A stretch of DNA of 63,580 nucleotides from a virus, in the IMG/VR virus record IMGVR_UViG_3300025284_000001, positions 1 through 63,580 of that record; one strand, 5' to 3'. Below, one piece after another: positions 16,871 through 63,580 of the stretch (position 1 is its first letter; each line of letters begins with the position of its first letter). The notes beneath the pieces were generated by a model. That model made no database searches and was not told the origin of the DNA. It was given only the letters and a program-made list of their open reading frames with translations. The position numbers and the translations under genes are program-made.

Positions 16871-17833
16871 TTATATTTTATTTACTCGTTTCACGTCGGG
16901 CGCGAGCCGGTGGAGAGGCGTTGCTTCCGCGTGTTGATGTTTCAAATCTTGATTCGCCAGGTTAACGTAATTTTCCGTCATCTTCAGCGTAGTGTGTCCG
17001 AGTAGATCCTTCAATGCGAAAACGTTCCCGTTACCGCGCAAGAAGTTTAGCGCAAAAGAATGACGAAGATCATACGGACGGATGTGTACCCCGAGCTTGT
17101 TGCAGTACATTTCCATACGGTCGCCCCACGTATGGCGCGTGAGATGCTTGCCTTCGTATGTGCAGAATATTGGCACGCTACTCCCCCATTCGGAAGGTCG
17201 GACGTGAATCAACCGTTTGATTGCCTTCACCGTTTTTGGTGAGAGCGGCAGTCTCCGAAATGTACGAGACTTCGCGGTTTCCTCGGGGATATACAGTTCC
17301 GACTCCTTCTCGCGAAAGTCTTCGGGAATTAGCCGAAATGCTTCGGATGGTCGAATACCTGTATCATAAGTAAGGAGAATTAATGTATAGTCGCGAAGCC
17401 CCGCAAAAGAACCTTGATCCGGCAATGTAAGAAGCTTCTTCAAAACATCGACGTCTATATCAACCTTGCGTCCCGTTGTTTTCTTTTTCTTTATTCCCGC
17501 AAGCGGATTTGATGACAGTTCGCTTTCTTCTACGCAATGATCGAGAAACGAGCGAAGATATACTAAGCGATTGTTGTACGTGGACGCCGCGATCTCTTCT
17601 GAGAGATGCGCAAAACATGAGTTTTTGAGTTCGTCGAATGAGTCCGGAGCATTCGGAAACCTCCGGAAAAAGAGGGATACGTGTTGCTGGTAATCGTTAA
17701 GAGTATGATCGGAGACTTTCTGTGCCCGTTTAAGGCGGAGGAAATCAGAGAGGAGAAACTTCCAGTCTAAACCACTTAAGTCGTCGTCTGCACTTATGCG
17801 TAATAATCGTGCCAAATAAAAAACCCCTTTCAC
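16871..17833 (-). CDS. int: Tyrosine recombinase / integrase
   Basis: 320 aa; catalytic Arg (DTGIRPSE), LRHSFA (H-x-x-R), LLGHT, TENYV (Tyr); start uncertain (GTG 17833 lacks RBS, TTG 17815 follows AAAGGGG). Confidence 0.9.
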   Translation of the reverse strand: MKGVFYLARLLRISADDDLSGLDWKFLLSDFLRLKRAQKVSDHTLNDYQQHVSLFFRRFPNAPDSFDELKNSCFAHLSEEIAASTYNNRLVYLRSFLDHCVEESELSSNPLAGIKKKKTTGRKVDIDVDVLKKLLTLPDQGSFAGLRDYTLILLTYDTGIRPSEAFRLIPEDFREKESELYIPEETAKSRTFRRLPLSPKTVKAIKRLIHVRPSEWGSSVPIFCTYEGKHLTRHTWGDRMEMYCNKLGVHIRPYDLRHSFALNFLRGNGNVFALKDLLGHTTLKMTENYVNLANQDLKHQHAEATPLHRLAPDVKRVNKI

Positions 17834-20391: not shown

Positions 20392-21078
20392 TTACTTCGC
20401 TCCCTTTGTCGTTATTTTCACGGTCTTCGTGATGTTATCCCACGATATCGTTGCGCCAATTGCCAACGCAACCGCACGCCCCGGAAAGTATGTAACGCCG
20501 TCGATGATGATCCCGTCGTCGATGCGCTTGCCGTCGACATACAGCTTCGCGGATGTGGTCGGAGTCGTTGGCGGCTTCACTTCCGTTTTCAATCGCTTTT
20601 CCACCTCCGCTTTAAATGCGAACCAGCCCGTCCATTTACCACCGTCGTACATCTTGCTCGGGCAAATTTTCCCCGACCAATCGAAATGGCGGCGCAGTCT
20701 ATCAACGCCCCATCCGCGTTCTTTCAGCATCTTGGCTACGAGGTCGGCCGCATTTTCGAGAGTCTTCGCGTAGTTTCCACTCTCGCAAATCTCGATGCCG
20801 ATAGACTTCCGATTACCATCGCCATTTCCGTCTCCTGCGTGCCATGCGTTTTCATTGAGCGGCAACACTTCGATGGCATCGTGTTCATCGACGACGATGT
20901 GATACGATGCTGTCCGGCCGTTAGATGGATTCGTCAACCACGCACGTTCATTTCGCGCGGTGGACGTTGGGTTCCCCGTATTGTGAATCGTAATCGTCGT
21001 CGCGGACATTGCGTTTCCTGGACGGCGATTACACGGAGTATTGCGTGGTATATGGTCGATTCGATATTCGTAATTCAT
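20392..21078 (-). CDS. N-acetylmuramoyl-L-alanine amidase endolysin
   Basis: Amidase_2-type ITIHNTGNP, AWHAGDG, IGIEICE; C-terminal Cu-amine-oxidase-N1-like wall-binding segment. Confidence 0.9.
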   Translation of the reverse strand: MNYEYRIDHIPRNTPCNRRPGNAMSATTITIHNTGNPTSTARNERAWLTNPSNGRTASYHIVVDEHDAIEVLPLNENAWHAGDGNGDGNRKSIGIEICESGNYAKTLENAADLVAKMLKERGWGVDRLRRHFDWSGKICPSKMYDGGKWTGWFAFKAEVEKRLKTEVKPPTTPTTSAKLYVDGKRIDDGIIIDGVTYFPGRAVALAIGATISWDNITKTVKITTKGAK

Positions 21079-40417: not shown

Positions 40418-42030
40418 TCGATTACCTCAACCTCGTTAAAGACGGTGGAGTCGACAGTTCCGTATGCGTCCTTTTCGTCTTTTGTGATTCGCGTCATCAT
40501 CGCGGACGCATGTGAATCGTCGAGGTTGTCCAAGCGTTTGATAGCGTCATGAACCGCCAGTGTCGGCTTTCCGCCTGTTCTGATTTGTGCGATTTCCGCT
40601 TGTTCCTTCTCGTCTACTGGAAGTCCGTCCTTCCAAGTGATGGTCGGATATACCGGCTCGTAAGGTTCGAATCCGTCTACGCCTCGATTCGCGAAGTTTT
40701 CGAGTTCCATTGCAGTCCATAACGCATCACGTATTACCTTGTCAACGTGGACTCTGATCCGATTCACCTTCGCGAGTATCGGCATGAACCTCGCCTTAAT
40801 TGCGCCGGAATCCGTATGTGATGTACCGGTTCCACCGCGAGTATCGCCTGCAAGCGTCGTACCGAATAACCATTGTGGAGTCTCCGACATCTGGAACACC
40901 ATTCCGAGAAGATAGTCGAGTTCCTTAAACGCTCCATCAAGCTGCGAATTCCACGTCATATAGCCCGGTGTTACGTCTTCCTTCGTGGTCGTAATGTACT
41001 TGCCGCTAAACTTAACGGATACTCCGTCGTCTTCTTCGATATCAGGTCCATACGCAGTTGGATCGGAATGTTTCCACAGGATGTAATCGATCTGGACGAG
41101 ACGGTCGTTAATCGCGGCCAATAGTGATTCGATCTTCTCGATTCCCGAAATCCCGTACCAACGATCATCAACGGATTTGTACGGAATGTGGAACACGAGC
41201 GGCCTTGCGACGCCTGTCTCGACGATATCCTTTTCGCGACCAGTCTCGATTTTTTCACCGATTCGGAAGAGTTCGATCGGCGCTCCGTATTGATTATCGA
41301 TGCCGTTCGGATGTAGCCGATAACGCTCATAGATGATGTAGCCCGGAACGTGGCGCTCAACGTTCAGATACGGGATGGCATTCATTTTCTCGCGCGAGAA
41401 TCTCGACGTGAAGAATCCGTTCGGCTCCTCGACCCATTCGACCCATGCGATGCTGACCGCCTTGAACTTTTTTTTGCTCCCGCGAGCCAATTCCGGAAAA
41501 ACAATCGACGCGTCCACCGGCTCGATAATCGGCTCTTGTTTCGCTTCCGGCGGTTCCAGCCCTTCCGGAATAGCCGAAAAGTCTTGCGCGTAGCCGTATC
41601 GGACTTTGAAGAATGCATCACCGCGATAGCCTGCGCCGATAACCGATTCGTGAATCCTCGCGGTCAAGTCGTTTTCCTCGACGATGCTATTCAGCGCCTT
41701 TTGTTCGGTAGAATCGTCGGGCTTTCCGCTCTCATACGTCGGCGGCTCACCGACAAGCAAGTCGGACGGCTTCGTGAGCAGGACATCTACAATATTGCAC
41801 GCGATGTACAACGTTTTGAGCTGCGGAGCCGCTGGCGTATCTTTTAGTAACGCGGCTGCTCGGTCGAACATCTCGTAAGGCTTCCCGTCGAATATGGTTT
41901 TGCCACGTAGATATCGCGCCAACCGCTCAACATGATCTTGCGGCGGGAACTGTTTTCCCGTTTCGATCATCTTCGTTGTTTTCGTGATAAAATCCGTTAT
42001 TCTCTTCGCCTCCTTTCCGTTTACATCCAC
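40414..42030 (-). CDS. Portal protein
   Basis: 538 aa; directly after the large terminase with overlap. Confidence 0.85.
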   Translation of the reverse strand: MDVNGKEAKRITDFITKTTKMIETGKQFPPQDHVERLARYLRGKTIFDGKPYEMFDRAAALLKDTPAAPQLKTLYIACNIVDVLLTKPSDLLVGEPPTYESGKPDDSTEQKALNSIVEENDLTARIHESVIGAGYRGDAFFKVRYGYAQDFSAIPEGLEPPEAKQEPIIEPVDASIVFPELARGSKKKFKAVSIAWVEWVEEPNGFFTSRFSREKMNAIPYLNVERHVPGYIIYERYRLHPNGIDNQYGAPIELFRIGEKIETGREKDIVETGVARPLVFHIPYKSVDDRWYGISGIEKIESLLAAINDRLVQIDYILWKHSDPTAYGPDIEEDDGVSVKFSGKYITTTKEDVTPGYMTWNSQLDGAFKELDYLLGMVFQMSETPQWLFGTTLAGDTRGGTGTSHTDSGAIKARFMPILAKVNRIRVHVDKVIRDALWTAMELENFANRGVDGFEPYEPVYPTITWKDGLPVDEKEQAEIAQIRTGGKPTLAVHDAIKRLDNLDDSHASAMMTRITKDEKDAYGTVDSTVFNEVEVIE

Positions 42031-43790
42031 GACGGCTTACGTCGGATTTTTCGTGATCCTTTTTTCAACGACGAAATCGACATTTCCATCGCGTCAGGTA
42101 GGTCGTCATGCCAATTGCTACCGTATCTCTCGAACTGCTCAAGCAGTAGCGCATGGTCGCGATTGAACCGAATAGTCTCGTTTTCAATGTCGGGCAACAT
42201 CGCCTCTATCCGCAATTCCTTACGTGTACGTTGGTGAATCTCCTTAACGCGATTCCTCGCAGGGTAGCCCTTCGATTGAAGCTCTTGCTTGAGTTTGTGG
42301 ACGAAAAACTCCTGTGCCATTTGCGCTTCTGCCGCGATTGAATCCGGCTGATAGTGCATTACTTTTTCGACGATGACTCGCATAAATTCGTCTGGATGTA
42401 TTCGAGCACCAAACGCGTCCACAACGTAAATAAGACCAAGCTTCTTGTGCTTGGCCGTAACAACGATAGCAGAGTAGTCCCCGCGTTGTTTACCCATCGC
42501 GAAGTCTATTCCCATCCCGATATAGTAGTCCGAGTGATCGAACTTCGTTATTGAATCGTAGTACTTGAACCGTTCGATCTTGAAAATCTGCGACTCTTCG
42601 TCGATCGGATTATTCTGAAACTCGGTATTAAACGCTTTGTTGCCGTAGTTCATCTTTTCCAATACGAGAAACTGAATCGGGAATCGCGACGGCCACAGCA
42701 CCTCCGCGCCCTTCTCCATTTCTTCGCGATGAGATTCGAAGAAGGCCAATGCAGCCTTAACGTTTGGAGCTGCCGTCTCGTCGTCCATCTCTTCCATTGC
42801 GGCAATCTCTTCGTCTGACGGTTCGTACTCTTTATATATCCGTTCGAACTCCGCCCATAAATCGGAGCGTTCCGGTTGTTTGATTATCGCAGGGAAACTA
42901 TTCTTAACGAAATCTTTCCGTTCTTTCAAAACGTAATTAAGCAAACTATCGTGATGGACAAGTGTTCCCATGAAAATAATCGCTGTCTGCGTTGGGTCGT
43001 ACGCAGGCATCAAGTCCTGATTAAGCCAATCCTTCGCCTTTTGCCGCAACTCGGGCGTATTGTTTGAGTCACGCGATTCCAAGTCGTCTAGGAGGATCAA
43101 GTCGGGACGCTGCGAACCATTACGGAAACCGCGAATCTGCATCCCGAGAGATGTCGCTTCCATCTTCGCACCAGATGTCGTCAGGAACGCCTCTTCCGAA
43201 TCCTTCTCGTTCATCGTCTTCTTTTCGTATAAAAGTTCGCCAAAATCTGCTCGAAGCTTGGTGTTGTACTTGAGTTGTCCGGCAACCCACTTGATAAACT
43301 TCTTCGATCCTGCGTTCGTCTCCGAAATAATTAAGATCATCCGACGCTTACGATATGCGATCTCGTGTACTGGGAATGCGTTCGACAGATACGCGGATTT
43401 GGCGTGACCGCGAGATGCAGCCCACGCTATACGTGCCGTTCGGTTAACGTTCGATACCGAATCAAGAATCCGCGAAAGCTTCCGGTGAAAGTTCGGCGCT
43501 CCGTCCATGTCGACGTCTTTAGTCGGCACGAGATTGTCCGGATTGCCTGGATTCCGAGCTTCGGAAAAATACTCGTAGAAGAAATAGAGCATATCTACTT
43601 CTGCGCGGTGAATCCGCGTCAGCCGCTTCAACTCCGCTATATCTTCGCGGAGCATTTCAATGTGATACTCGGTCGCGCGCCCGGACTTAACAAGCTTTTT
43701 CAGTTTCGACGCGCGTTCGGAAATAACGACGATGCGCTCGGCGCGTTCTTCACGGTCAAGCCATCGTCCGTCTACGTATGCCAAGTGCAA
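42021..43790 (-). CDS. terL: Terminase large subunit
   Basis: 589 aa; ATPase Walker B-like DLILLDDLE; RNaseH-like nuclease segment GIDFAMG... Confidence 0.9.
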   Translation of the reverse strand: MHLAYVDGRWLDREERAERIVVISERASKLKKLVKSGRATEYHIEMLREDIAELKRLTRIHRAEVDMLYFFYEYFSEARNPGNPDNLVPTKDVDMDGAPNFHRKLSRILDSVSNVNRTARIAWAASRGHAKSAYLSNAFPVHEIAYRKRRMILIISETNAGSKKFIKWVAGQLKYNTKLRADFGELLYEKKTMNEKDSEEAFLTTSGAKMEATSLGMQIRGFRNGSQRPDLILLDDLESRDSNNTPELRQKAKDWLNQDLMPAYDPTQTAIIFMGTLVHHDSLLNYVLKERKDFVKNSFPAIIKQPERSDLWAEFERIYKEYEPSDEEIAAMEEMDDETAAPNVKAALAFFESHREEMEKGAEVLWPSRFPIQFLVLEKMNYGNKAFNTEFQNNPIDEESQIFKIERFKYYDSITKFDHSDYYIGMGIDFAMGKQRGDYSAIVVTAKHKKLGLIYVVDAFGARIHPDEFMRVIVEKVMHYQPDSIAAEAQMAQEFFVHKLKQELQSKGYPARNRVKEIHQRTRKELRIEAMLPDIENETIRFNRDHALLLEQFERYGSNWHDDLPDAMEMSISSLKKGSRKIRRKPSWM

Positions 43791-43799
43791 TCACCTCCG

Positions 43800-44057
43800 T
43801 TAAACTTTTTCGTAAGTAGCTTCGAAAATGTCGGGTTTGCACGGATAAACCTCGCCTTGTACGCCTTTGATTATGTAATCTCCCAGCGCAGCCTTCATCG
43901 TGCCTTCGAGCGTATTTATAAACATCTCCCCGCCACTAAAACTCACCGCTCCGGATTTGATTCTCTCGCAAATCCACGTCGGGTCCTCCGTTTGATCTCG
44001 TCCACCCGTCCACTGGAACGCCTCAATAACCACAGGTTTTTTACGATACTCCGCCAC
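43800..44057 (-). CDS. hypothetical protein (85 aa)
   Basis: Track ORF 43800..44138 trimmed to GTG 44057 overlapping the terS stop; KKPVVIEAFQW... Confidence 0.5.
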   Translation of the reverse strand: MAEYRKKPVVIEAFQWTGGRDQTEDPTWICERIKSGAVSFSGGEMFINTLEGTMKAALGDYIIKGVQGEVYPCKPDIFEATYEKV

Positions 44058-44511
44058 TGCCTTCGACTCCTTCCGCAAGCAATTCGTCCAACTCTTCAAT
44101 ATCCTTCGCGATATCATCCGTGCTGCGCGAGCTTCCAACCTCGCGAGTCTCTACAACTTGCTTATCCGTCAGCAATCCGTGACGACGCAGATACAAGTCG
44201 ATTCCCTTGACGGACGGCATCGCGTTTTCCCCTTTCGGGTCGATGAGCTTCATTAGGTTGCGATATACGACCACGCGCTTAGATTCGAGAAAGTCGTCGC
44301 AAAGTAAGTTCACGTATTCAATAAACGCTTTATTCTGCGTACGCCATTTCCATAGCTCCTTGCGAGAATAACCGACCCGTTCCGCAATCTCTGCGATAGT
44401 CATCCGCGAATCTGTATCTTCCGCAAGTTCTCGTTCAACGCAAAGAAGCGCAGCCTCACGTTGCTTAACGGTTAGCTTCGCCTCTAGCGCTCTTTTTCGT
44501 TGTTCGGACAA
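44041..44511 (-). CDS. terS: Terminase small subunit (HTH type)
   Basis: 156 aa upstream of terL; TIAEIAERVGYSRKELWKWR HTH; GAAGGAGG RBS, TTG start. Confidence 0.65.
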   Translation of the reverse strand: MSEQRKRALEAKLTVKQREAALLCVERELAEDTDSRMTIAEIAERVGYSRKELWKWRTQNKAFIEYVNLLCDDFLESKRVVVYRNLMKLIDPKGENAMPSVKGIDLYLRRHGLLTDKQVVETREVGSSRSTDDIAKDIEELDELLAEGVEGSGGVS

Positions 44512-44639: not shown

Positions 44640-45590
44640 TTACGCCGTCGTCACGAAGCAGCCGCAACCTCCGATATCATCTCTATCTATCTCCGCGCGT
44701 CTCTTCCCGTCCTCGTATATTTCACGAAGCCGCGAAAGAGAAAGTCTCTCAACTTTTTTGTTCCGAGTCCGCTTTAGGATCGTAACGTCCTTACCAAGGT
44801 GTTTTTGAATCTCTCTCTCCCTCTGCTCGTGGTATGCAAATTGTTCAGGAAAACGTTCGAGTAAATTTACGTAATGTCCTTGTCCTGCGCGTACACAAAA
44901 CCCGCCGCAGTTGTTGTGCGCGAAGCCGAGTCCGTAAAGTCGAGGTCGAGCAATTCCAACGAAATCTAAATGCGAAAGCATATCCGTTTTATCTATGTAT
45001 GGTTCGTCGCACATCGGAAACCTCACCAGATATGGTGACCAGTTTGCGACTGGAGCGGTAGTCCGATGATCCTCCGTCCAATCAATTCCGAGATACAAAA
45101 CGACGTCTGGCGCTTTATATTCGCGAATTCCATCCGAGCCTACCTCGACAAGCGGAAATGTTGATTTAACCCACTTTGCCGCGACTTCTTGCTTTAGCTT
45201 GTGTGAACACTGTGCCAATCTCGAATTGCCGAGATATCGCACGTTGAAAAACACGTCCCACGGAGTTCTCCCGTCAATCACCCAAACCAATCCGGGAATC
45301 AAACGCATTGCCTCCGACGCAATTTGCGGAATCAGTTGCTTCCGCAAATCTACGTCTGATTCGCTATGAATATCCGGAATCTCTTCGCATCGCGACAGAA
45401 GCTCGTCAGGTCGAGGCAAACCGTAGGCTTACGCGGTAGTTTCGATTAAGAAACGATATAGATCGCGATCCTCGATTAAGGTATCCGTAAATAGGTTGAT
45501 TACGTCGCCGGCCCCGTACTGAGCAATAATCCGCTGCAATGCCGACCAGCTTCCGATGCCACCCGAGTTGAAGTTTATATGTTTCGTCAA
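44640..45590 (-). pseudogene. PP-loop ATPase / PAPS-reductase-like gene interrupted by an in-frame TAA (45429-45431)
   Basis: TTG 45590 (AAAGGAG RBS) gives MTKHINFNSGGIGSWSAL...RFLIETTA then TAA, then the same frame continues AYG-LPRPDELL... as track ORF 44640..45419. Confidence 0.65.
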
Positions 45591-45771
45591 ATCGACGACT
45601 CCTTTCGTATCCCTTACGTTAGACCCCCGACTTCAAAAAATTGTGCGCAAGTTACAATCGTCTGTTGCAGCCCTCCGAAGCCACCCCTTTGGGGGGCTTT
45701 ATCGCGGTACAGTATTGACGTTTCGCACGAAAGGGGGTTTACCATTTCGTTGGCAATTCGTAATGATTACG

Positions 45772-46017
45772 TTATGCACCGTTTATGCAAGCACTTGTGC
45801 ACCAAATCCGGATTTTGACCTATAGTGTATCGTCATCAACCCGCATGGTTACGGCATTTATCAGAGTATGCATAAAGTACCGTTATGCAACGAATATTCA
45901 TTACCAGTGAATAGCGAAGCATATCCGCATAACCACGCGGTATCCCGCCGATTCTCTACGCGAGTCACTGGCAATTTATACAACGTGAGTAATACGAATG
46001 TCCGTTCGTTTATGCAA
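45772..46017 (+). repeat. CGTT(T)ATGCAA motif cluster 2
   Basis: 45772-79, 45782-90, 45883-90, 46009-17; weaker 45866-75; inverted copy at 46440-48. Confidence 0.7.
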
Positions 46018-46158
46018 TGGTTATACAGAACGCAGTCTCACGGAGAACTGCGTAGTTCCGTTGGATACCGATAAGTCAACGTCGACCCCCGTGAGTTTGG
46101 CGAGGGCTTCCGGTCTGACCTCTCTTGCAGATGAAACGCTAAGATCTCGGTAACCAAC

Positions 46159-46188
46159 GGATACCCTACGTATCCCACTCCGATACCC
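46159..46188 (+). repeat. GRTAYCC triple repeat at 10-12 bp spacing
   Basis: GGATACCC 46159-66, GTATCCC 46170-76, CGATACCC 46181-88; related copies near 45940 and 46063. Confidence 0.6.
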
Positions 46189-46278
46189 ATCGCTTCCTAT
46201 ATAAATACCGTTGAATCAACGCATACTTAACGCAGGTTACACTCGCTTGCTTATGCCTTAAAATCCACGTCAAATAAG

Positions 46279-46415
46279 CCGCTTAATCTCTCGCGAATAG
46301 GAACGTACCTAAACGGGAATCAAGCGGTTAATCTGACGGGAATCATACGGGATAATCATGCGTATACTAACGGCAATCACTCCGTTAATCATCCGCGAAT
46401 CATCCGTACAATCTA
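46279..46415 (+). repeat. Iteron-like array: nine CG-N2-3-AATC(A) units, mostly 11-13 bp apart
   Basis: AATC at 46285, 46318, 46330, 46341, 46354, 46375, 46387, 46398, 46410. Confidence 0.7.
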
Positions 46416-46667
46416 TCGTTGTAAAGTGTAGGTATAACGTTGCATTTACGTAGAGCTGGTAAGCTCATCGATAATGCAAAGATAAAAGATAGCCTGCGCG
46501 CCAAGGCGCTCGGCAATGTATTTACTTAATACTTTCCTCGCGTTCTCTTTATCGCGCGAAGAATTATTTATACCTAACCTGTTCGCGAGGAATAGTGTTC
46601 TTCTATTCCGAGTGCTATGTTTTGTTTCTCTTTTACTACTTGCTATTTTACTTCTTTCTATCTTTAC

Positions 46668-46709
46668 ACATCCGATATAGCATGTACCGTAACATCCGAT
46701 AACGGATGT
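46668..46709. repeat. ACATCCGAT half-sites including palindrome ACATCCG-ATAA-CGGATGT
   Basis: 46668-76 direct copy; perfect 7-bp-arm palindrome at 46692-46709. Confidence 0.65.
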
Positions 46710-46830
46710 ACTGATGCGTCCGTTATTGGACGTTAGGAAGACGTGTATAAGATAAGAATCAATTTCTCGATTTTTACGAGAAAAACGCCGAAATCCCTTT
46801 CTACGTAAGGCTTGCGAGGTTTTACGTCGT

Positions 46831-46884
46831 GTGCAAAAAAGGGTACCTAATTGGCCGATATCGTGCAAAAAAGGGTACCTAATT
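46831..46884 (+). repeat. 22-bp perfect direct repeat GTGCAAAAAAGGGTACCTAATT x2
   Basis: 46831-52 and 46863-84; the second copy covers the stop codon of the Rep-like gene. Confidence 0.85.
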
Positions 46885-47748
46885 TTCGTTAGGCACTCGA
46901 TAGCTTGCGAACATTGCACGTAAAGTTGCGTCAGGTTCACCGCTCTTACGATAGAAAACGTATGGATTAAGTACCGTTAGCTTCTCGCGCTTGTCCTCTA
47001 CGTTAATCCATTCGCCAATAATCTTCGCTTTACGCAAGCGCGTCAGCGCCTCTTTCGTCTTGGACTCGGTTAGACCGACTATATCCCCGATCTCCTTATC
47101 CGGAAGGAAACGGATATCTTCAGGAGCAACGAAAGGATCAGCGCATACCATGTTCGTTTCGTAATGAACGTGCTCTAACAACTTGAAGACGAATCCGAAA
47201 TCTGCCGCGCTAAGTTTGAACTTACGTAGCGGAGAGAAAAACGTCTTAATCAACGCATCTACTCCGTTAGCTTTGTCGCGAAAGTGATAACGCTCGTTTA
47301 TCGAAAAAACTCCGTCAACATCGAAAATGATGCTGCGGAGTTCAAATTCGCGGATTGCCGCTTGAGCCGTTCGTTTGGACACTTTCCATACCTTCGCGAT
47401 GTCTTGGACAGTTAATGGACGCGGCGTCCTTCCTTGCTCGACGAGTCTTCCCGTCTTATATTCGATATGCGGCTGTAACAAGAGCAAATAACCGCAATAT
47501 TTATTCGATAGTTCTCGCGTAATCTCTCGGATATTATGCATGTGTGTAAACGAGAAATCCCGTTTGTCTCGGCTTACTTGTGCGCGACGTCTACCGGCTT
47601 CTATCGATTCCATCGACTGGATACGATATATCCTTCCGTATGTATCTCGCGCATATCCGTTAGTTCCAACTGGCGTAAGCGTACCGACCGGCGCTTCCCT
47701 TCGAATGTCTCGTACTCGTTTCGCCAATTGCGCATTATTCATCGGCAT
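46879..47748 (-). CDS. Rep-like protein with two winged-helix-like segments (tentative replication initiator)
   Basis: 289 aa; VSKRTAQAAIREFELRSII and TESKTKEALTRLRKAKIIGEW; adjoins the iteron hub. Confidence 0.45.
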   Translation of the reverse strand: MPMNNAQLAKRVRDIRREAPVGTLTPVGTNGYARDTYGRIYRIQSMESIEAGRRRAQVSRDKRDFSFTHMHNIREITRELSNKYCGYLLLLQPHIEYKTGRLVEQGRTPRPLTVQDIAKVWKVSKRTAQAAIREFELRSIIFDVDGVFSINERYHFRDKANGVDALIKTFFSPLRKFKLSAADFGFVFKLLEHVHYETNMVCADPFVAPEDIRFLPDKEIGDIVGLTESKTKEALTRLRKAKIIGEWINVEDKREKLTVLNPYVFYRKSGEPDATLRAMFASYRVPNEN

Positions 47749-47899
47749 TCATCACCTTAATCGCGCTTTCCAATTCGCGAAGAGTTACCGTTAGATGCTT
47801 TGCCTCACGCGCTAACGCCTTTAATCCCGTGAGTGCTTCCGAAACGTCAACGTTTACCTTTAGTGTTAAGTCGCTTAATTCGCGAGAAGATTCCGCCAT
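47735..47899 (-). CDS. small coiled-coil protein (54 aa)
   Basis: ATG 47899; MAESSRELSDLTLKVNVDVSEALTGLKALAREAKHLTVTLRELESAIKV...; overlaps the Rep-like start. Confidence 0.4.
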   Translation of the reverse strand: MAESSRELSDLTLKVNVDVSEALTGLKALAREAKHLTVTLRELESAIKVMNADE

Positions 47900-47930
47900 T
47901 TACAACGCCTGCCTTTCGAATAGTTTGCGA

Positions 47931-48033
47931 AGAAGCGCAGGGACTCGAACCCTAACGCACGCCGACCGTGAACGCCGCCCCATTTCGTTTCTTGTCGGAT
48001 TCGAACCGACACAGGAGCGAGCCAGCAGAAACG
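47931..48033 (-). ncRNA. Two tandem tRNA-like minihelices (T-arm plus acceptor-like stem, no D or anticodon arms)
   Basis: Minus sense CGTTTCT-16 nt-GTCGG TTCGAAT CCGAC-A-AGAAACG, then ...TAGGG TTCGAGT CCCTG CGCTTCT. Confidence 0.4.
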
Positions 48034-48068
48034 CAAAAAGACCCAACCAGAGATAATCCGATCGGGTC
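48034..48068 (-). terminator. Intrinsic terminator after 48135..48827
   Basis: Minus sense GACCCGATC-11 nt-GGTTGGGTC (9 bp with 2 G-U) followed by TTTTTG. Confidence 0.6.
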
Positions 48069-48134
48069 AATATGTCTTTCTATAATACATAGCCAAGTTA
48101 AGGGCAAAAAGGCAACCTATCCTGCGTAAATAAT

Positions 48135-48827
48135 TTATATTTTTCCTAGCGCGCGACATCCGATGACTCGGCCTTGCTCGTCACGAACGATGTCATCCGG
48201 AATGAATATGTCATCTCTGTCCGGAACAGCTTGTGCGGTAATGGACGATACAATATAAATCGTGTCCTTCTGCGGTTTAGGTAGTCCTTGGACAGCTCCG
48301 AATCTCGTACGGTAAATTTGAATCCCGTTGATTGTTCCGTAATGCTCTCGTGTTGTTGTCGCGCGAGCTTCTCCAGATGACGGAATTGACGTGATCTCTC
48401 CGTCAGAGCCGTCTGGCATTATGTTGATCGTGTGCGGCGTTAAGTTGACGATATCTACCGCCTCTTGTGCGTGGAGTCCGCGAAGAGTGCGGATTATTTC
48501 GTCGATACTTTCGATGTCCGCCGTCATTCCTACGCCAATGCCTACGAACATATAGTATGGAGCTTCGTCGTCGCGTCGGGCATAATAGAACGATAGTACG
48601 AGATCGCCGAGGACATCGTCGTATCTTTCCGTATCTAACAACCAAGATTCGCCGTCACTGTCTCCGTCCCAATACATTTGAAGGCTCTTTCCGACCAATT
48701 CAACGATACTCTTCCGGTGGCGCTTCTTCAGTTCGGAAAACTCCGTTTCTCCTTCGCGGATGATGACTGACTTAATATATTCGAGAACACCGATAATCAA
48801 CTCGACTTGCACTTTCGGACTTTTCAT
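48135..48827 (-). CDS. hypothetical protein (230 aa)
   Basis: ORF track; C-terminal LTPHTINI...GLPKPQKDTIYIVSS...VRDEQGRVIGCRAL resembles a family seen in many phages, function unknown. Confidence 0.65.
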   Translation of the reverse strand: MKSPKVQVELIIGVLEYIKSVIIREGETEFSELKKRHRKSIVELVGKSLQMYWDGDSDGESWLLDTERYDDVLGDLVLSFYYARRDDEAPYYMFVGIGVGMTADIESIDEIIRTLRGLHAQEAVDIVNLTPHTINIMPDGSDGEITSIPSSGEARATTTREHYGTINGIQIYRTRFGAVQGLPKPQKDTIYIVSSITAQAVPDRDDIFIPDDIVRDEQGRVIGCRALGKI

Positions 48828-49105
48828 ATACGCACGCTCCTCGATAATAGTATGCGGATATCCGCGACCATCCCGGCGTCTGCCGGTAGGTTTCGTCCCG
48901 TTCCGTCCAGGACTCGTCAGGCGGCGCGAGGTAGTCGTTATACATTTTCCACTTCGATAGTATCGATCTTTTCGAGGAGATTCGTTAATTCCAGTTTCCG
49001 TCTGTCTGATGAACTTTCTTCGCGCATCTTTTTAATTGCGACTTGTAACAAATACACGTCTCTTGAGTTAAGTGTAGCACCCGACCTTACCTAACAGCCT
49101 CCTAG

Positions 49106-49192
49106 CTATTCTTTATCTTTGAAAACATACACCAACGCGACAATACTCAAAATCAATGCTGCAAGCGAAATACCTAATGTGATCAAATCCAT
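49106..49192 (-). CDS. 28-aa hydrophobic peptide (holin-like / type I toxin-like)
   Basis: ATG 49192 with AGGAGG 10 nt upstream; MDLITLGISLAALILSIVALVYVFKDKE. Confidence 0.5.
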   Translation of the reverse strand: MDLITLGISLAALILSIVALVYVFKDKE

Positions 49193-49317
49193 GCTTGTCC
49201 AACCTCCTGCATATATTGATCTGAGGTGAGGTTAGTGATAAGATTTGGAGAGAGGCCATCTTGCGGACTGACCTCTCCGGTACTTACTTTGCGTGGGGCG
49301 CAACGATAAGTACCTTT

Positions 49318-49401
49318 TTACTTTTTACGGCTATTGCGAAACAAGATGAATGCAGTAACACACTGGATGATCGCCGTAATCAGTTGAACCAAATCTTTCA
49401 C
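49318..49401 (-). CDS. 27-aa Fst-like hydrophobic peptide (type I toxin-like)
   Basis: GTG 49401 with GGAGGTGA 7 nt upstream; (M)KDLVQLITAIIQCVTAFILFRNSRKK. Confidence 0.5.
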   Translation of the reverse strand: MKDLVQLITAIIQCVTAFILFRNSRKK

Positions 49402-49453
49402 TTGTCCTCACCTCCATCTGTTCGGTGACCCGTTTAACGTATCACCTATATAT

Positions 49454-49482
49454 AATATAACATGACCCTTTTAGCGTGTCAA
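49454..49482 (-). promoter_or_regulatory. sigma-A promoter TTGACA-17-TATATT (leftward, early operon)
   Basis: -35 = revcomp 49477-82, inside the palindrome; -10 = revcomp 49454-59. Confidence 0.6.
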
Positions 49483-49496
49483 TGTTTATTTGACAC
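49476..49496. promoter_or_regulatory. Operator palindrome GTGTCAA-TGTTTAT-TTGACAC
   Basis: Perfect 7-bp arms; each arm supplies the -35 TTGACA of one divergent promoter. Confidence 0.65.
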
Positions 49497-49518
49497 TTTT
49501 TCCGTATCAAGATATATT
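49490..49518 (+). promoter_or_regulatory. sigma-A promoter TTGACA-17-TATATT (rightward, Cro-like gene)
   Basis: -35 at 49490-95, -10 at 49513-18, then AGGAGG and ATG 49539. Confidence 0.65.
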
Positions 49519-49538
49519 TTCAATAGGAGGTCAATAGC

Positions 49539-49748
49539 ATGTCAGTAATAAAATCGAATCTTAAGTTTTTTGTTGATAAAAAAGGAATATCAGTTAGACA
49601 GGTGGCGCGGGATATAGATTACCGACTAGAGTCCGTACAAAATATGTACAACGACACTATGGAGAGATATCCTCGCGAGCTGTTAGTCAAATTGTGCACG
49701 TATTTTGATTGTGAAATAAACGAGCTATTAGTAATAGATGATAATTAG
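49539..49748 (+). CDS. Cro/XRE-like HTH regulator
   Basis: 69 aa; KGISVRQVARDIDYRLESVQNMYN HTH. Confidence 0.75.
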   Translation: MSVIKSNLKFFVDKKGISVRQVARDIDYRLESVQNMYNDTMERYPRELLVKLCTYFDCEINELLVIDDN

Positions 49749-49784: not shown

Positions 49785-50330
49785 CTATCCGGTTGCCCAA
49801 CGTTCGCCAAGTCCGCGACAACCCACGAAGTCATCCGCAAACGCTCCGCCGGTATCGCGCAGATTGTACGAGATCACCGCCCCTGGCGAAGTGTCTCGTT
49901 TGTACTGCGCGCTGCGTTTCCGGTTCTTAATCTGCGCAAGTTTATCGACGAATCTTGATTCCTTCGCAGTCCTACGTCGTCTAATCGGAGTCGCGCGATT
50001 CCTTCCTTCTGTATCGTGATTCTCCGCGATTTCTAATCCGCATTCCCGTTCGAATCGGCGCGCCATTTGGCGCTCGCTTAGAATCGGATACTCATCGTTT
50101 ATCTTATCCGTCCGCATATCCCCTTCGAGTTCTTCGAATAGGATGTAGGCCGTTAATTGTTCGAGAATGCCACCATCTGGCCGCTCACCTATTTGCGCTA
50201 CATACTCGGCAATCAGCGCTTGTACTGCCGCCATGCGCTCGTCTCTGTCTTCGACCATTGCGTCAATCAAACGCGTTGCCGCGCGTTCGAAAGCCGCTTT
50301 GTAATCGGAATCCCCTCGGAATGTTGTCAA
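49785..50330 (-). CDS. hypothetical protein (181 aa), basic C-terminal half
   Basis: ORF track; ATGA-type overlap with the methyltransferase gene. Confidence 0.6.
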   Translation of the reverse strand: MTTFRGDSDYKAAFERAATRLIDAMVEDRDERMAAVQALIAEYVAQIGERPDGGILEQLTAYILFEELEGDMRTDKINDEYPILSERQMARRFERECGLEIAENHDTEGRNRATPIRRRRTAKESRFVDKLAQIKNRKRSAQYKRDTSPGAVISYNLRDTGGAFADDFVGCRGLGERWATG

Positions 50331-51724
50331 ATAACCGCCTCCACTCGTTGATTTTCCGAAGCCTGTCCGTTGCCGCCGACAGACTCCGTTAGTAACCGCT
50401 GTATCAAACGCCTGCTTGTCGCGCTGATAACGTTAACTGTGACGGCATTCCCCGCCTGCTTATACAATTGCGAATCGCTCACGCCAGCAGCTCGTACCTT
50501 ATCGAACTGCGCGTCGGTAAATCCTTGTAGACGCCAACACTCACGAGGTGTAAGCTTACGAATGCGATAACGTGGCTTTTCAAGTAACGCATGCTCTATC
50601 GTTTGCGTTGCAGTAACACAATTAGATAACCCATCTGTGCGCGGAACTATGACTTTGCCGCGTCTCGGCGAGAAATCACGGCCAAGTTTTCGAGACTCCC
50701 TTCGAATAGCTTTCGCCTCTTCCGACCGTCTTTCCGTGAGTGCGCACGCTTCAATTACGTGAGTTCTACGCCCCTTACCAACGTCTCTGGGCGAAGTTCC
50801 TTTCGCGTAACTTGCGTCTACTGTATAAGCTACACCAGAACCATCCGAATATTGTTGCAATTGAGGTTCCGCAATCTTTTGTGCACGCCCACCTCCACTA
50901 ACGACTGTGAGCGTAGGCGCGACGCCATAGACATCATACACGCGATTCATTTGATCGTTACCGTAGTGTTCGAGTGAACCGAAAATTACAGGGCTGGTCG
51001 AGTCATTCCGTTCGTTGAGTTGCTCGATAAGTTTCACTGTCTTCTCCTCGGACAGGTAGTATTTCTCGTCGACCTCCGATTCTAGGACATCTCGCAGGCG
51101 TTTAGTAACCGCGCTATTAGTCGGCCAATCGAAATTAAACGTTTTAACACCTAACGCCTGGATGCGTTTTTTCGCCTTGGATACAACGTCCTTACCTTCG
51201 ATATCCCACGGCTCATGCTGTGTGTCACGAGCACATGCGAGGATTATTCTTTCGCGATTTTGCGGAACGCCGAAGTATTTCGAGTTCAACACCACGAAGT
51301 CAATCGCGTATCCGATATCGTTGAGTGCTTGCGCCATAACTTCGATAGTACGTCCTTTGTCGTGTGACAATAAGCCTTTCACATTCTCAAGGAGCATCAT
51401 TCTCGGACGTTTCTCTTTCGCGATACGTGCAATTTCGAAGAATAATGTTCCGCGAGTGTCATCAAACCCCTTACGCTGTCCTGCGACGCTGAATGCCTGA
51501 CAAGGAAACCCCGCCACAAGCAAGTCGTGATCCGGAATTGTTCGCGCGTCAATCTTCGTTATGTCGCCGCGTAGTTCTGGAGCTCCGTCGTACAACGCTT
51601 TGTACGACTGTTGCGCGAATCTATCGATTTCACACGCGAAGACGCACCGGCCGCCTAGCTCGTCCAACGCAGAACGGAAGCCACCAATTCCCGCGAACAA
51701 TTCGATATAGTCGAATCTACTCAC
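50327..51724 (-). CDS. DNA (cytosine-5)-methyltransferase
   Basis: Motif I FAGIGGF, IV GFPCQAFS, VI LLENVKGL, X YKQAGNAV; long variable region. Confidence 0.9.
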   Translation of the reverse strand: MSRFDYIELFAGIGGFRSALDELGGRCVFACEIDRFAQQSYKALYDGAPELRGDITKIDARTIPDHDLLVAGFPCQAFSVAGQRKGFDDTRGTLFFEIARIAKEKRPRMMLLENVKGLLSHDKGRTIEVMAQALNDIGYAIDFVVLNSKYFGVPQNRERIILACARDTQHEPWDIEGKDVVSKAKKRIQALGVKTFNFDWPTNSAVTKRLRDVLESEVDEKYYLSEEKTVKLIEQLNERNDSTSPVIFGSLEHYGNDQMNRVYDVYGVAPTLTVVSGGGRAQKIAEPQLQQYSDGSGVAYTVDASYAKGTSPRDVGKGRRTHVIEACALTERRSEEAKAIRRESRKLGRDFSPRRGKVIVPRTDGLSNCVTATQTIEHALLEKPRYRIRKLTPRECWRLQGFTDAQFDKVRAAGVSDSQLYKQAGNAVTVNVISATSRRLIQRLLTESVGGNGQASENQRVEAVI

Positions 51725-52118
51725 GCAATCCCTCCGCTTCCTCTACCGCCATATCAGCGCATACCTCGCCGTAATCCCAATCGCGAAAGACTCTCGCAAT
51801 CTTCCTACATGCTTCCGAGTTAAACTTCGTTACGGCTTGCCTTGTAACGGACATCTCTTCCGCAGACTCTTCGTGGGTCAAACCACATCCGTATAGATAC
51901 GTAATGGCTTCCGCTTGCCGCCTCGATAGTTTCGCTCGGTCGATAGCTTCGTTTAGATCGATGATGATGTCGCATGCGACGTAATCGCCGGTAAACCTAC
52001 GTGCGGCAATCTTATGCCGGTCGCGAAGCAACTTCTCGACTCCTTTCGAAGTGTTTAACGCGTATGATTGCGTGTACTTGCGGGAATCCTTCGCAATGTC
52101 GACTTTTACTGCGCCCAT
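51717..52118 (-). CDS. sigma-70 region-4-like transcription regulator (late activator candidate)
   Basis: 133 aa; LSRRQAEAITYLYGCGLTHEESAEEMSVTRQAVTKFNSEACRKI. Confidence 0.5.
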   Translation of the reverse strand: MGAVKVDIAKDSRKYTQSYALNTSKGVEKLLRDRHKIAARRFTGDYVACDIIIDLNEAIDRAKLSRRQAEAITYLYGCGLTHEESAEEMSVTRQAVTKFNSEACRKIARVFRDWDYGEVCADMAVEEAEGLRE

Positions 52119-63211: not shown

Positions 63212-63580
63212 CTACTTCGCCTCCTTCCGCATAGTCCGCACAATCGCATGTGGCGGAACGTACCGCAGTGGACGCTCGTCCGAATCTATCACGACGTTCC
63301 GGTACAGGACACGCCGGACTTCCGCCATTGATTGCAGCACTTCGAATACTTTTACCGTAGCTTCAACGTCGTTCATCGCGCGGTGATGTCCGTTCAATTC
63401 GATCCCATGACGAGAGCATGCGTCTTTTAAGCTCGCGGATTCTTTCGGTTCTACTAACTTCGATAGTGCCCGAGTACATACGAATCTAGTAGTCGTGAAT
63501 ACTCGCGAGATAAACGCCAGGTCAAACGGAGCATTATGCGCAACTATTGTCGTACCAAACGCGAAGTAATCCAACGCTGA
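63212..63580 (-). CDS. DnaQ-like exonuclease, 3' part (5' part is at 355..1 via the circular junction)
   Basis: Exo II HNAPFDLAF and Exo III HRAMNDVEA; the track start M is an internal TTG. Confidence 0.8.
   Translation of the reverse strand, partial: SALDYFAFGTTIVAHNAPFDLAFISRVFTTTRFVCTRALSKLVEPKESASLKDACSRHGIELNGHHRAMNDVEATVKVFEVLQSMAEVRRVLYRNVVIDSDERPLRYVPPHAIVRTMRKEAK
63454..63580. repeat. Terminal direct repeat copy 2
   Basis: Identical to 1..127. Confidence 0.95.

Follow-up and report, generated by a model that had tools for sequence, protein, structure and literature searches.

We analysed positions 45,591 to 49,538 of a viral DNA of 63,580 nucleotides (IMG/VR record IMGVR_UViG_3300025284_000001, positions 1 to 63,580; at its full length referred to as the window). 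On a judgment that lies somewhat above even confidence, this region is a mosaic at the early-late boundary of a temperate siphophage, which combines an accessory cassette, a late-boundary regulator called p289, and packaging signals. A preliminary description of the same DNA had instead proposed a plasmid-style maintenance island, in which an iteron-type replicon joined to a post-segregational-killing locus suggested a phage-plasmid lifestyle. Our results argue for no hidden plasmid within the phage and for an ordinary phage architecture with accessory genes. At its core lies a very regular, unstudied protein-DNA pair, p289 and one phased pair of ~20-bp repeats, which a large group of phages from Bacillus, Paenibacillus, and Brevibacillus keeps where early genes give way to late ones, and which also occurs in a few plasmids. 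The features that carry this reading are as follows:

51717-52118, minus strand: 133-aa protein consisting of sigma-70 region 4 only (sigma-like protein)
49785-50330, minus strand: 181-aa protein (phrog_13088)
47735-47899, minus strand: p54, a 54-aa protein (phrog_27153, E 4.7e-11)
46879..47748, minus strand: p289, a 289-aa predicted tandem winged-helix DNA-binding protein (phrog_9501)
46831..46884, minus strand: two perfect 22-bp direct repeats AATTAGGTACCCTTTTTTGCAC, 32 bp from start to start, the first overlapping the p289 stop codon
46781..46820, minus strand: terminator-like hairpin with a T-run and an upstream A-run, possibly bidirectional, which always accompanies the repeat pair
46745..46762, minus strand: promoter-like motif TTGATTCTTATCTTATAC, present as a single copy in the window, at the head of the late region

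The association of p289 with the repeats was highly regular. No perfect 22-mer pair was expected by chance (0 matches), and this was the window's sole repeat pair spaced by 31-33 bp in 63.6 kb, with 0 found in 10 shuffles; a third copy of the 22-mer was not detected at up to 3 mismatches. We scanned 44 p289-bearing loci (391 kb) blindly for repeat pairs with a spacing of 31-33 bp and an identity of at least 16/18. Exactly one pair, spaced by 31-32 bp, was present in 42 of the 44 loci, and nothing else matched. In 33 cases the pair fell between -8 and +50 nt from the p289 stop codon. Pairs of the same type were also found in phage phi18-2, in the plasmid-deposited phages DY4 p1 and JNUCC32 unnamed1, and in the small plasmids PL16 and HM-311 p3 of Bacillus thuringiensis (Bt p3). 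There were two repeats per locus, and three in one relative. The repeat sequence varied with the p289 subfamily, being AATTAGGTACCCTTTTTTGCAC in the window, CTATCGGTAAATTCGCGGAC or AGTGTGCGCTGATTCGGACACT in other subfamilies, and AAAAAGTTGCGCTTATTCGTACA in Tripp, while the spacing remained constant; the short spacer between the repeats, about AATCGGC, was semi-conserved. Taken at the level of sequence, the 22-bp repeats are very probably the binding sites of p289. One p289 molecule may occupy each repeat via its two winged-helix domains, and such a two-headed monomer fits because the direct repeats lie three helical turns apart. Thus, of the iteron-type replicon, the iteron-like recognition of repeats probably stands, while the plasmid replicon does not, since p289 is a syntenic core gene of the phages (see below).

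The AlphaFold2 model of p289 (predicted local distance difference test score 88, predicted template modelling (TM) score 0.77) contained two winged-helix units, in agreement with the two segments recognised previously. Residues 60-281 matched the uncharacterised family phrog_9501 (E 1.1e-35, PHROGs profile). The family is large, with 74 homologues in one search and 1294 representative clusters at E<=1e-3. A comparison with the Rep_3, RepA_N, and RepB families had been suggested, and profile and fold searches returned generic winged-helix proteins only. Rep_3 (PF01051) did not match p289 at E<=1 in Pfam, and Rep_3, RepA_N (PF06970), and RepB-type families were absent among the 25 families most often matched by 56 members of the p289 family. 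The Pfam matches of p289 itself were limited to generic winged-helix families, with HTH_Crp_2 just at threshold. A search of solved structures with the single p289 sequence gave no match, and a profile search gave winged-helix matches only, with E>0.2. In a full-chain Foldseek search against the PDB, the top 50 hits were generic winged-helix proteins with TM<=0.24 and included no plasmid initiator. The best match among predicted viral structures (BFVD) was an unnamed protein with TM 0.61.

The p54 and p289 open reading frames (ORFs) overlap by 14 nt, as the preliminary description had indicated, and p54 is probably translationally coupled to the p289 gene. It was found directly upstream of the p289 homologue in many loci, where it was often better conserved than p289 itself.

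The surroundings of p289 were conserved as well. The order sigma-like protein, 181-aa protein, (54-aa protein), p289, 1-3 kb of DNA, and terminase genes TerS/TerL was kept in at least 30 of 38 IMG/VR viral loci and in all fetched relatives, and the full conserved layout reads sigma-like, 181 aa, 54 aa, 289 aa, repeats, terminator, promoter-like motif, TerS/TerL. Homologues of p289 were present in Paenibacillus, Brevibacillus, and Bacillus prophages (P. abyssi and P. apiarius among the hosts), in Tripp and the Halcyone-cluster phages, and in Bacillus phage phi18-2. Some were carried by contigs of 0.29-5.3 Mb, and those copies are thus integrated prophages. Searching PLSDB with p289 by tblastn revealed five "plasmids", of which the phage relatives were circular and 63-68 kb long. 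JNUCC32 unnamed1 from Paenibacillus sp. (NZ_CP062261.1, 62.9 kb; L076/L084 in our set of loci) is a complete phage of the p289-bearing family and a genuine phage-plasmid. At the position of the window's integrase it carries ParA, FtsK/SpoIIIE, Replic_Relax, and a winged helix-turn-helix (HTH) protein, while its p289 cassette and the packaging element X described below are unchanged. This winged HTH protein was ruled out as a p289 paralogue (hhalign probability 17%, HTH segment only). B. paralicheniformis DY4 p1 (NZ_CP126497.1, L077, 65 kb) is a complete phage with an integrase, deposited as a plasmid, and a 67.7-kb B. cereus record, NZ_CP133652.1, is a third candidate for this kind of "plasmid". 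Because the synteny is kept in integrated prophages, in phages with no identified integrase, and in a ParA-bearing phage-plasmid, p289 belongs to the core equipment of these phages. Being core and syntenic, it is not part of an acquired plasmid island, and its presence is uninformative with regard to lifestyle.

In the model that we favour, p289 would bind the 22-bp repeats just after its own stop codon and would control transcription entering the late operon (packaging, head, tail, and lysis genes), alongside the sigma-like and 181-aa proteins. Together, these two may act as a bipartite late sigma factor for which the single-copy promoter-like motif is the target. The motif has the general form A(A/T)TTATTTCTTA(G/T)nCTT and lies about 10-15 nt upstream of the Shine-Dalgarno (SD) sequence of the next gene wherever a gene follows. 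Its identity as a DnaA box was ruled out on sequence. The hairpin between repeats and motif had homologous counterparts in distant relatives, in the form of CCTT-loop-AAGG within a CGCC/GGCG stem followed by a T-run, and was inverted in loci L048 and L051 and in Bt p3. The repeats themselves were ruled out as plain terminators, as those of most subfamilies have neither a hairpin nor a U-tract. In every case a long co-directional operon followed the repeat pair, which is the arrangement that a transcription factor would require. In phi18-2 and DY4 p1, 2.3-2.8 kb of other genes lie between p289 and the repeat-hairpin-motif cassette, and it is the late-region head with which the cassette remains. 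DY4 p1 keeps it despite a different packaging module (P27 family TerS and HNH, RefSeq annotation).

Several points weigh against this model. Recognition of direct repeats by a tandem winged-helix monomer is the mode of iteron initiators. The promoter-like motif follows the repeats at a distance of ~75-110 nt, beyond a terminator, a geometry that is unusual for an activator, and the case for p289 binding to the repeats is one of linkage and co-variation only. Moreover, some BFVD neighbours of p289 (TM 0.40-0.44) are automatically named "Replication initiator protein" or "Replication protein O". Two 16-kb plasmids, Halobacillus PL16 (NC_017669.1, L078) and Bt p3 (NZ_CP040785.1, L079; its record is a 16.6-kb unit assembled twice), encode full-length p289 homologues of 25-27% identity. 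In both, the gene is preceded at 25-180 nt by the 32-bp repeat pair, which adjoins 1.6-2.1 kb of non-coding DNA rich in repeats, and PL16 has three ~41-bp tandem repeats and no recognisable Rep.

These points bear on a second explanation, in which p289 would be a replication initiator and the repeat pair, the hairpin, and the repeat-rich DNA its origin. This would be an undescribed system of Bacillales phages and small plasmids, without sequence relationship to Rep_3, RepA_N, or DnaD/O, and the phage would use it as its own origin and not as a second, plasmid-type replicon. We regard it as possible though doubtful. The tandem winged helix and the asymmetric, iteron-size direct repeats with fixed phasing, co-varying with p289, are in its favour. 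So is the position of the gene, which adjoins its sites as in cis-acting initiators, in the two plasmids the pair lies beside DNA that is AT-rich or bears iterons, and PL16 has no recognisable Rep. In many members of the family, parts of the winged helices also resembled Phage_rep_O, DnaD_N, RepL, and Replic_Relax weakly, all below curated thresholds, and the names of the BFVD neighbours mentioned above count in its favour too. In locus L051 (IMGVR_UViG_3300042138_000026), where a homologue of 44% identity is found in an atypical context, the order is FtsK/SpoIIIE-like, Replic_Relax, integrase, p289 with the repeat pair at its 5' end, HNH, and a DnaC-like loader, which places the gene between an integrase and a helicase loader. 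On the other hand, no curated initiator family matched at threshold and none was among the top PDB folds. Only two repeats are present, no DnaA box was seen in the sequence around them (inspection by eye, no systematic scan), and adjacent to them is a terminator hairpin with no consistent AT-rich unwinding element. The helicase/loader/primase/polymerase module, ~35 kb away from the p289 gene, encodes a small "replication initiation protein" of its own (phrog_154), and Bt p3 encodes a Cch-like helicase and a primase of its own. Finally, the site just upstream of terS is the canonical place of a late regulator, and the repeats of phi18-2 and DY4 p1 stay with the late-operon head and not with the gene. 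We therefore weigh the evidence towards p289 as a regulator of entry into the late operon.

The third part of the mosaic lies between p289 and the terminase genes and comprises the following features:

46520..46744, minus strand: segment specific to the window, containing ACATCCG(A/T)TA repeats and ~55 nt rich in purines, without homology in L004/L006/L008
46265..46413, minus strand: array of 10 GATT motifs phased at ~11.5 bp
45774..46016, minus strand: five TGCATAA/TTATGCA motifs
45618..45703, minus strand: element X, an 85-nt C-rich hairpin plus GCGCACAATTTTTTGAAGTCGGGG
42021..44511, minus strand: TerS (44041-44511; Pfam HTH_Tnp_1_2 and phrog_7344), a 112-aa protein, and TerL (42021-43790)

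Between 45591 and 46878, the gene strand has no ORF above 50 aa, and the opposite strand has ORFs of 51-89 aa. The preliminary description had reported helically phased repeats in this non-coding DNA, and these were borne out by the GATT array (periodicity z 10.3) and by the 22-mer pair, which is beyond chance. The GATT motifs follow one another at 12, 11, 12, 21, 13, 11, 12, 33, and 23 bp. They reach 10 per 200 nt where the genome averages 1.46 and form its densest GATT cluster, which is kept in L006 and L010 and partly in L008. Clusters similar to the TGCATAA motifs were found between p289 and TerL in L006, L008, L010, L038, L043-45, L069, L071, and L074, and one TGCATAA copy lies within the direct terminal repeat (DTR) of Tripp. 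Close relatives were 73-83% identical over most of the non-coding region, except for 225 bp at 46744-46520. This segment carries three ACATCCG(A/T)TA copies, direct and inverted (repeats D6, I4, and I5), and takes the place of an 89-aa ORF of L007/L008/L010.

With nhmmer, element X was detected once in each locus, always on the gene strand and ahead of TerS/TerL. With the pooled model it was located at 347-422 in Tripp, Ash, and Halcyone, across the DTR end at 377/378 (DTR lengths from PMC6070908). Its 3' variant co-varied with the TerL lineage and not with p289, and natural recombinants separate the two. In L004, p289 is 88% identical and the repeats are the same, but TerL is only 50% identical and element X is of the other variant. 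Conversely, L066 has a TerL of 79% identity and the window's X variant, but its p289 is 32% identical and its repeats differ. In addition, the block 45982-45774 moves together with the packaging genes in L004 and L010. The module swaps in L004 and L066 indicate that p289 and the repeat pair form one cis/trans couple and that the terminase and element X form another, independent one, and this independence implies that the 1.3 kb is mostly packaging-module DNA. The 1.3-kb region is, as far as its sequence allows, probably a concatemer junction, and we propose element X as the region that terminase recognises and cleaves. In the model, terminase would recognise and cut concatemers within 46.4-45.6 kb and leave a terminal repeat of a few hundred bp here. 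In phage T7, phased short repeats flank the terminal repeat.

The packaging assignment has its own weak points. Tripp, Ash, and Halcyone are ~90% identical at this site and thus count as one observation. An element-X model built without the Tripp-type variant misses Tripp, so the link between the window's element and the Tripp DTR depends on bridging loci such as L004, whose element X is window-like in its 5' half and Tripp-like in its 3' half. Neither BLAST nor local alignment gave a significant match between the non-coding DNA of the window and the terminal repeat of Tripp, and the position of the window's own terminal repeat is putative.

Two other signals in this stretch were set aside. 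An exact 16-mer of the non-coding region had 19 matches in IMG/VR, all 19 of them chance matches in unrelated DNA, and a ZMP-ZTP riboswitch match at 46493-46565 (E 6.7) was treated as noise. A 17-mer, GTCACTTCGTTCCTTGC, which forms a hairpin with constant loop and variable stem, was conserved on the downstream side of the p289 cassette in loci that range from Tripp to close relatives (L002 6924-6940, L004 11071-11087, L006 11112-11128, L010 11484-11500); it had 0 matches in the window at up to 3 mismatches.

The adjacency of p289 and the packaging genes raises a third explanation, in which p289 would be a packaging-specificity factor that marks the phage's own DNA at the repeats so that terminase starts at element X. 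We consider this improbable. It is in line with the location of p289, which immediately precedes the packaging module in nearly all loci, and with the lineage-specific repeats, which are expected for self-recognition. Bt p3 could then be a satellite borrowing the system: it carries a p289-like gene, repeats, element X (E about 1e-5), a Cch-like (DUF927 + HTH_56) helicase, and a CHC2 primase resembling that of Staphylococcus aureus pathogenicity islands, and it has no terminase. Its element X and p289-like gene, together with its own helicase and primase, suggest a satellite-like plasmid. However, repeats and element X assort independently, and DY4 p1 keeps the repeat cassette with a different terminase type and without element X. 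Repeats are likewise present in PL16 and L051 with no detectable element X, and an HTH domain is already provided by the TerS of these phages.

The first part of the mosaic, at 49.5-47.9 kb, would be an accessory cassette with its own sigma-A promoters, an Xre-type regulator, two peptides, a hammerhead candidate, a Crn4b-type nuclease, and tRNA-like processing elements. Its features are:

49539..49748, plus strand: 69-aa Xre/Cro-type HTH regulator, divergent from the peptide operon (Pfam HTH_26, E 1.6e-12)
49454..49518, both strands: divergent sigma-70-type promoters (minus strand 49482-49454, plus strand 49490-49518), each TTGACA-17-TATATT, 11/12
49318..49401, minus strand: peptide 1, 27 aa, hydrophobic (MKDLVQLITAIIQCVTAFILFRNSRKK), with a good SD
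49193..49317, minus strand: structured inter-peptide RNA with three hairpins, the third pairing with the SD of peptide 2
49106..49192, minus strand: peptide 2, 28 aa, hydrophobic (MDLITLGISLAALILSIVALVYVFKDKE), type-I-toxin-like candidate, with a good SD
48860..48926, minus strand: candidate type I hammerhead ribozyme in the leader of the 230-aa gene (Rfam RF00163)
48135..48827, minus strand: p230, 230 aa, with an N-terminal domain and a C-terminal Crn4b-type ring nuclease domain
48040..48068, minus strand: intrinsic terminator after the 230-aa gene, 12-bp stem with 6 GC pairs, then TTTTTGCGTT
47925..48035, minus strand: ~112-nt insertion with two tRNA-like T-arm/acceptor minihelices (GGTTCGAATCC, GGTTCGAGTCC)

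The divergent promoters, the two peptides, the 230-aa ORF, and the terminator had all been noted in the preliminary description, and each was found at or near the place given there. The 230-aa protein had been left as unknown within a maintenance locus. Its ORF is present, but the maintenance function does not hold, since the protein resembles a Crn4-type ring nuclease. Residues 125-229 matched the PADLOC family Unk_01 (E 1.8e-29), and the structural model (pLDDT 90) was similar to Crn4 9r7b by Foldseek (E 1.4e-9, 38% identity, TM 0.75 on target). Among 36 homologues, T130, R155, R204, and R215 were invariant and H132 nearly so. In Crn4a of A. procaprae, the catalytic residues are T13, H15, and R112 (PMC12830947), and p230 thus appears to keep the catalytic Thr/His/Arg of Crn4. 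Unk01 corresponds to Crn4, and phage and plasmid Crn4b orthologues with N-terminal extensions are reported as likely anti-CRISPRs (PMC12830947). By this similarity, p230 is probably an enzyme directed against type III CRISPR and cyclic oligoadenylates, which would destroy these defence signals.

The two peptides are candidates for type I toxins. They matched no family in Pfam, NCBIfam, or PADLOC, and hence no known toxin family. The toxin idea is nevertheless reasonable because the sequestered ribosome-binding site of peptide 2 is a hallmark of type I toxins. The inter-peptide RNA folded with a minimum free energy of -42.5 kcal/mol (z -4.9), and 0 of 200 shuffles folded as well. Hairpin 1 is followed by a T-run on the plus strand and could thus terminate an antisense RNA, for which the plus-strand promoter-like site at 49119-49147 scored only 9/12. 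Of the post-segregational-killing locus, the toxin hallmarks of the peptides are retained.

The promoter-peptide-hairpin cassette (49106-49482) was ~79% identical to a segment of the 86-kb phage Pd_22F (L081, ~2380-2800), where it is unannotated; this otherwise unrelated phage carries a serine recombinase. The -35 (TTGAC) and -10 (TATATTATAT) blocks of the minus-strand promoter are kept in the same place in Pd_22F. Peptide 1 is conserved there with its SD and with coding-type substitutions, the ORF of peptide 2 is conserved too, and the inter-peptide RNA is nearly invariant, with changes that preserve the stems. The same kind of HTH gene is found here in relatives, and in Pd_22F the cassette is likewise divergent from an HTH gene, of the Cro/C1 type. 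The two-peptide cassette thus has the appearance of a mobile module.

The hammerhead candidate scored 27.7 bits (E 8.6e-4), below the RF00163 gathering score of 34. Its core (CUGAnGA ... GAAA ... GUC) is present over the full model, 1-45, and stem I has only ~4 bp. A syntenic copy in L004 (8174-8237) scored 25.9 bits, also below 34, and showed compensatory changes in stem III; the candidate was absent in L007 and L010. Regarding the tRNA-like minihelices of the preliminary description, two T-arm motifs (GGTTCGARTCC) were indeed present, at 47997-48007 and 47941-47951. However, ARAGORN detected 0 tRNA genes, and Rfam gave no tRNA match and nothing at gathering thresholds, only a weak mascRNA/tRNA-like match at 47932-47976 (E 0.74). 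The insertion was found only in the closest relatives L008/L009, while L004 and L006 have 6-9 nt between the same flanks. The minihelices may be RNase P/Z processing sites or tRNA remnants. Folding energy gave no support for the tRNA-like insertion, the hammerhead, or element X, since their z scores relative to shuffles were -0.5 to +0.4.

The window as a whole is a Paenibacillus siphophage of ~63.45 kb, related to the DTR phages Tripp and Halcyone. Its bases 1-127 are exactly those at 63454-63580, and this 127-nt overlap points to a circular (or terminally redundant) assembly with a true genome of ~63,453 bp. Nearly all genes are on the minus strand. Along transcription, the order is tyrosine integrase, replication module, nucleotide-metabolism and methylase genes, the studied region, TerS, TerL and structural genes, and lysis. 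The separate replication module of the preliminary description was confirmed (PolA, Toprim primase, DnaB-like, and DnaC-like proteins), and so was the tyrosine recombinase. The 133-aa sigma-region-4 protein and the 181-aa protein are kept as a pair upstream of p289 in most loci. Further genes mentioned here are:

44640..45590, minus strand: PAPS-reductase-like gene, the first of the packaging operon (phrog_424), with an in-frame TAA at 45429-45431
20392-21078: amidase (lysis)
16871-17833: tyrosine recombinase/integrase, XerC/D-like

The PAPS-reductase-like protein of L008 is intact (316 aa), with Gln (CAA) where the window has TAA. This codon in the window is a nonsense mutation, a pseudogene mark, or a sequencing error. 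TerL was 70% identical to that of Bacillus phage KLEB27-1. The next-best phage group was Ash/Heath of the Halcyone cluster from Paenibacillus larvae, with 41% identity over 99% of the length. Halcyone-cluster phages of P. larvae package with direct terminal repeats of 377-378 bp, and four genomes of this cluster have no identified integrase (PMC6070908).

A lifestyle can be proposed from the same data. No ParA, ParM, or TubZ was found among the window proteins scanned, which represent part of the proteome. The phage attachment site (attP) was not traceable because the closest integrases were at most 58% identical and no junction could be aligned. An integrative lifestyle is the simplest given the tyrosine integrase and the lack of partition genes among the scanned proteins, so most simply the window phage integrates. 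The use of the region as evidence for a phage-plasmid lifestyle fell away, as p289 is found in prophages and in phages without integrase and the partition module of JNUCC32 lies elsewhere. Integrated Bacillus prophages commonly carry toxin-antitoxin loci of type I. A plasmid-derived maintenance island made of a Rep, iterons, and a killing locus in a two-replicon phage-plasmid is very unlikely: circular "plasmid" relatives of 63-68 kb (of which JNUCC32 has ParA and DY4 p1 only an integrase), a window that assembles as a circle, an XerC/D-like integrase with an untraceable attachment site, and toxin-like peptides would suit it, but the p289 module is core, JNUCC32 keeps its partition genes apart from p289, the 230-aa protein appears to be an anti-defence enzyme, the peptide cassette is shared with a serine-recombinase phage, toxin-antitoxin loci of this type accompany integrated prophages as well, and a terminally redundant virion genome also assembles as a circle.

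Deciding between a role of p289 in late transcription and one in replication would annotate more than 1000 protein clusters that are now labelled "hypothetical" or "MarR/AsnC-like". The natural module swaps, which separate the p289 sites from the terminase sites, provide ready-made controls. Among accessory genes of interest, the region contributes a ring nuclease of Crn4 type from a phage, which is an anti-CRISPR candidate, and a mobile cassette of two peptides.

Compared with known systems, p289 resembles the Rep_3 iteron initiators (RepE of F, pi of R6K, and RepA of pPS10) in its two predicted winged helices within a chain of ~290 aa. Its repeats are similar to theirs in being direct, ~20 bp long, adjacent to the gene, and co-varying with the protein, so that a comparable recognition is probable. 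In contrast to these initiators, p289 has no PF01051 match and no such structure among its top PDB folds, its repeats are two at a distance of 32 bp rather than an array of at least three, and its gene is a core gene at the head of the late operon.

RinA, ArpU, and LtrC are late-operon activators of Gram-positive phages encoded just upstream of terS (PMC3152322, PMC3753634). Like these, p289 is the last gene before packaging, has a single putative target site upstream of the late operon, and occurs across temperate phages of Firmicutes. It is, however, unrelated to them, being a 289-aa tandem winged-helix protein rather than a small sigma-like factor, and a terminator lies between its repeats and the promoter-like motif. 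The better analogue of ArpU/RinA in the window is the sigma region-4 protein (51717-52118).

Type I toxin-antitoxin examples in Firmicutes prophages and plasmids include fst/RNAII, bsrG/SR4, and txpA/ratA. The window peptides are similar in being hydrophobic and shorter than 30 aa, with a structured mRNA, a sequestered site, and possibly a convergent antisense RNA at the shared hairpin. They differ in that two peptides stand in tandem, no toxin family matches, the antisense RNA is putative, and the divergent Xre-type regulator may control them instead. Among anti-defence enzymes, the nearest to p230 are Crn4b of phages and plasmids (PMC12830947) and the viral ring nuclease AcrIII-1; the C-terminal 105 residues of p230 resemble Crn4 by profile and fold. 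The N-terminal extension of p230 is ~120 aa, as compared to 60-80 aa in the reported phage orthologues (PMC12830947).

Among whole phages, the Halcyone cluster (Tripp, Ash, and Halcyone) shares p289 (30% identity), p54, and TerL (41%) with the window, the same order of methylase, sigma-like protein, p289, and terminase, the same repeat-hairpin-motif cassette, and an element X upstream of TerL. It differs in the repeat sequence and in the 3' variant of element X, and TerS, which in Tripp precedes the terminal repeat, follows element X in the window. The phage-plasmid JNUCC32 has the same backbone, p289 cassette, and element X as the window, and at the place where the window carries its tyrosine integrase it has ParA, FtsK/SpoIIIE, Replic_Relax, and the winged HTH protein.

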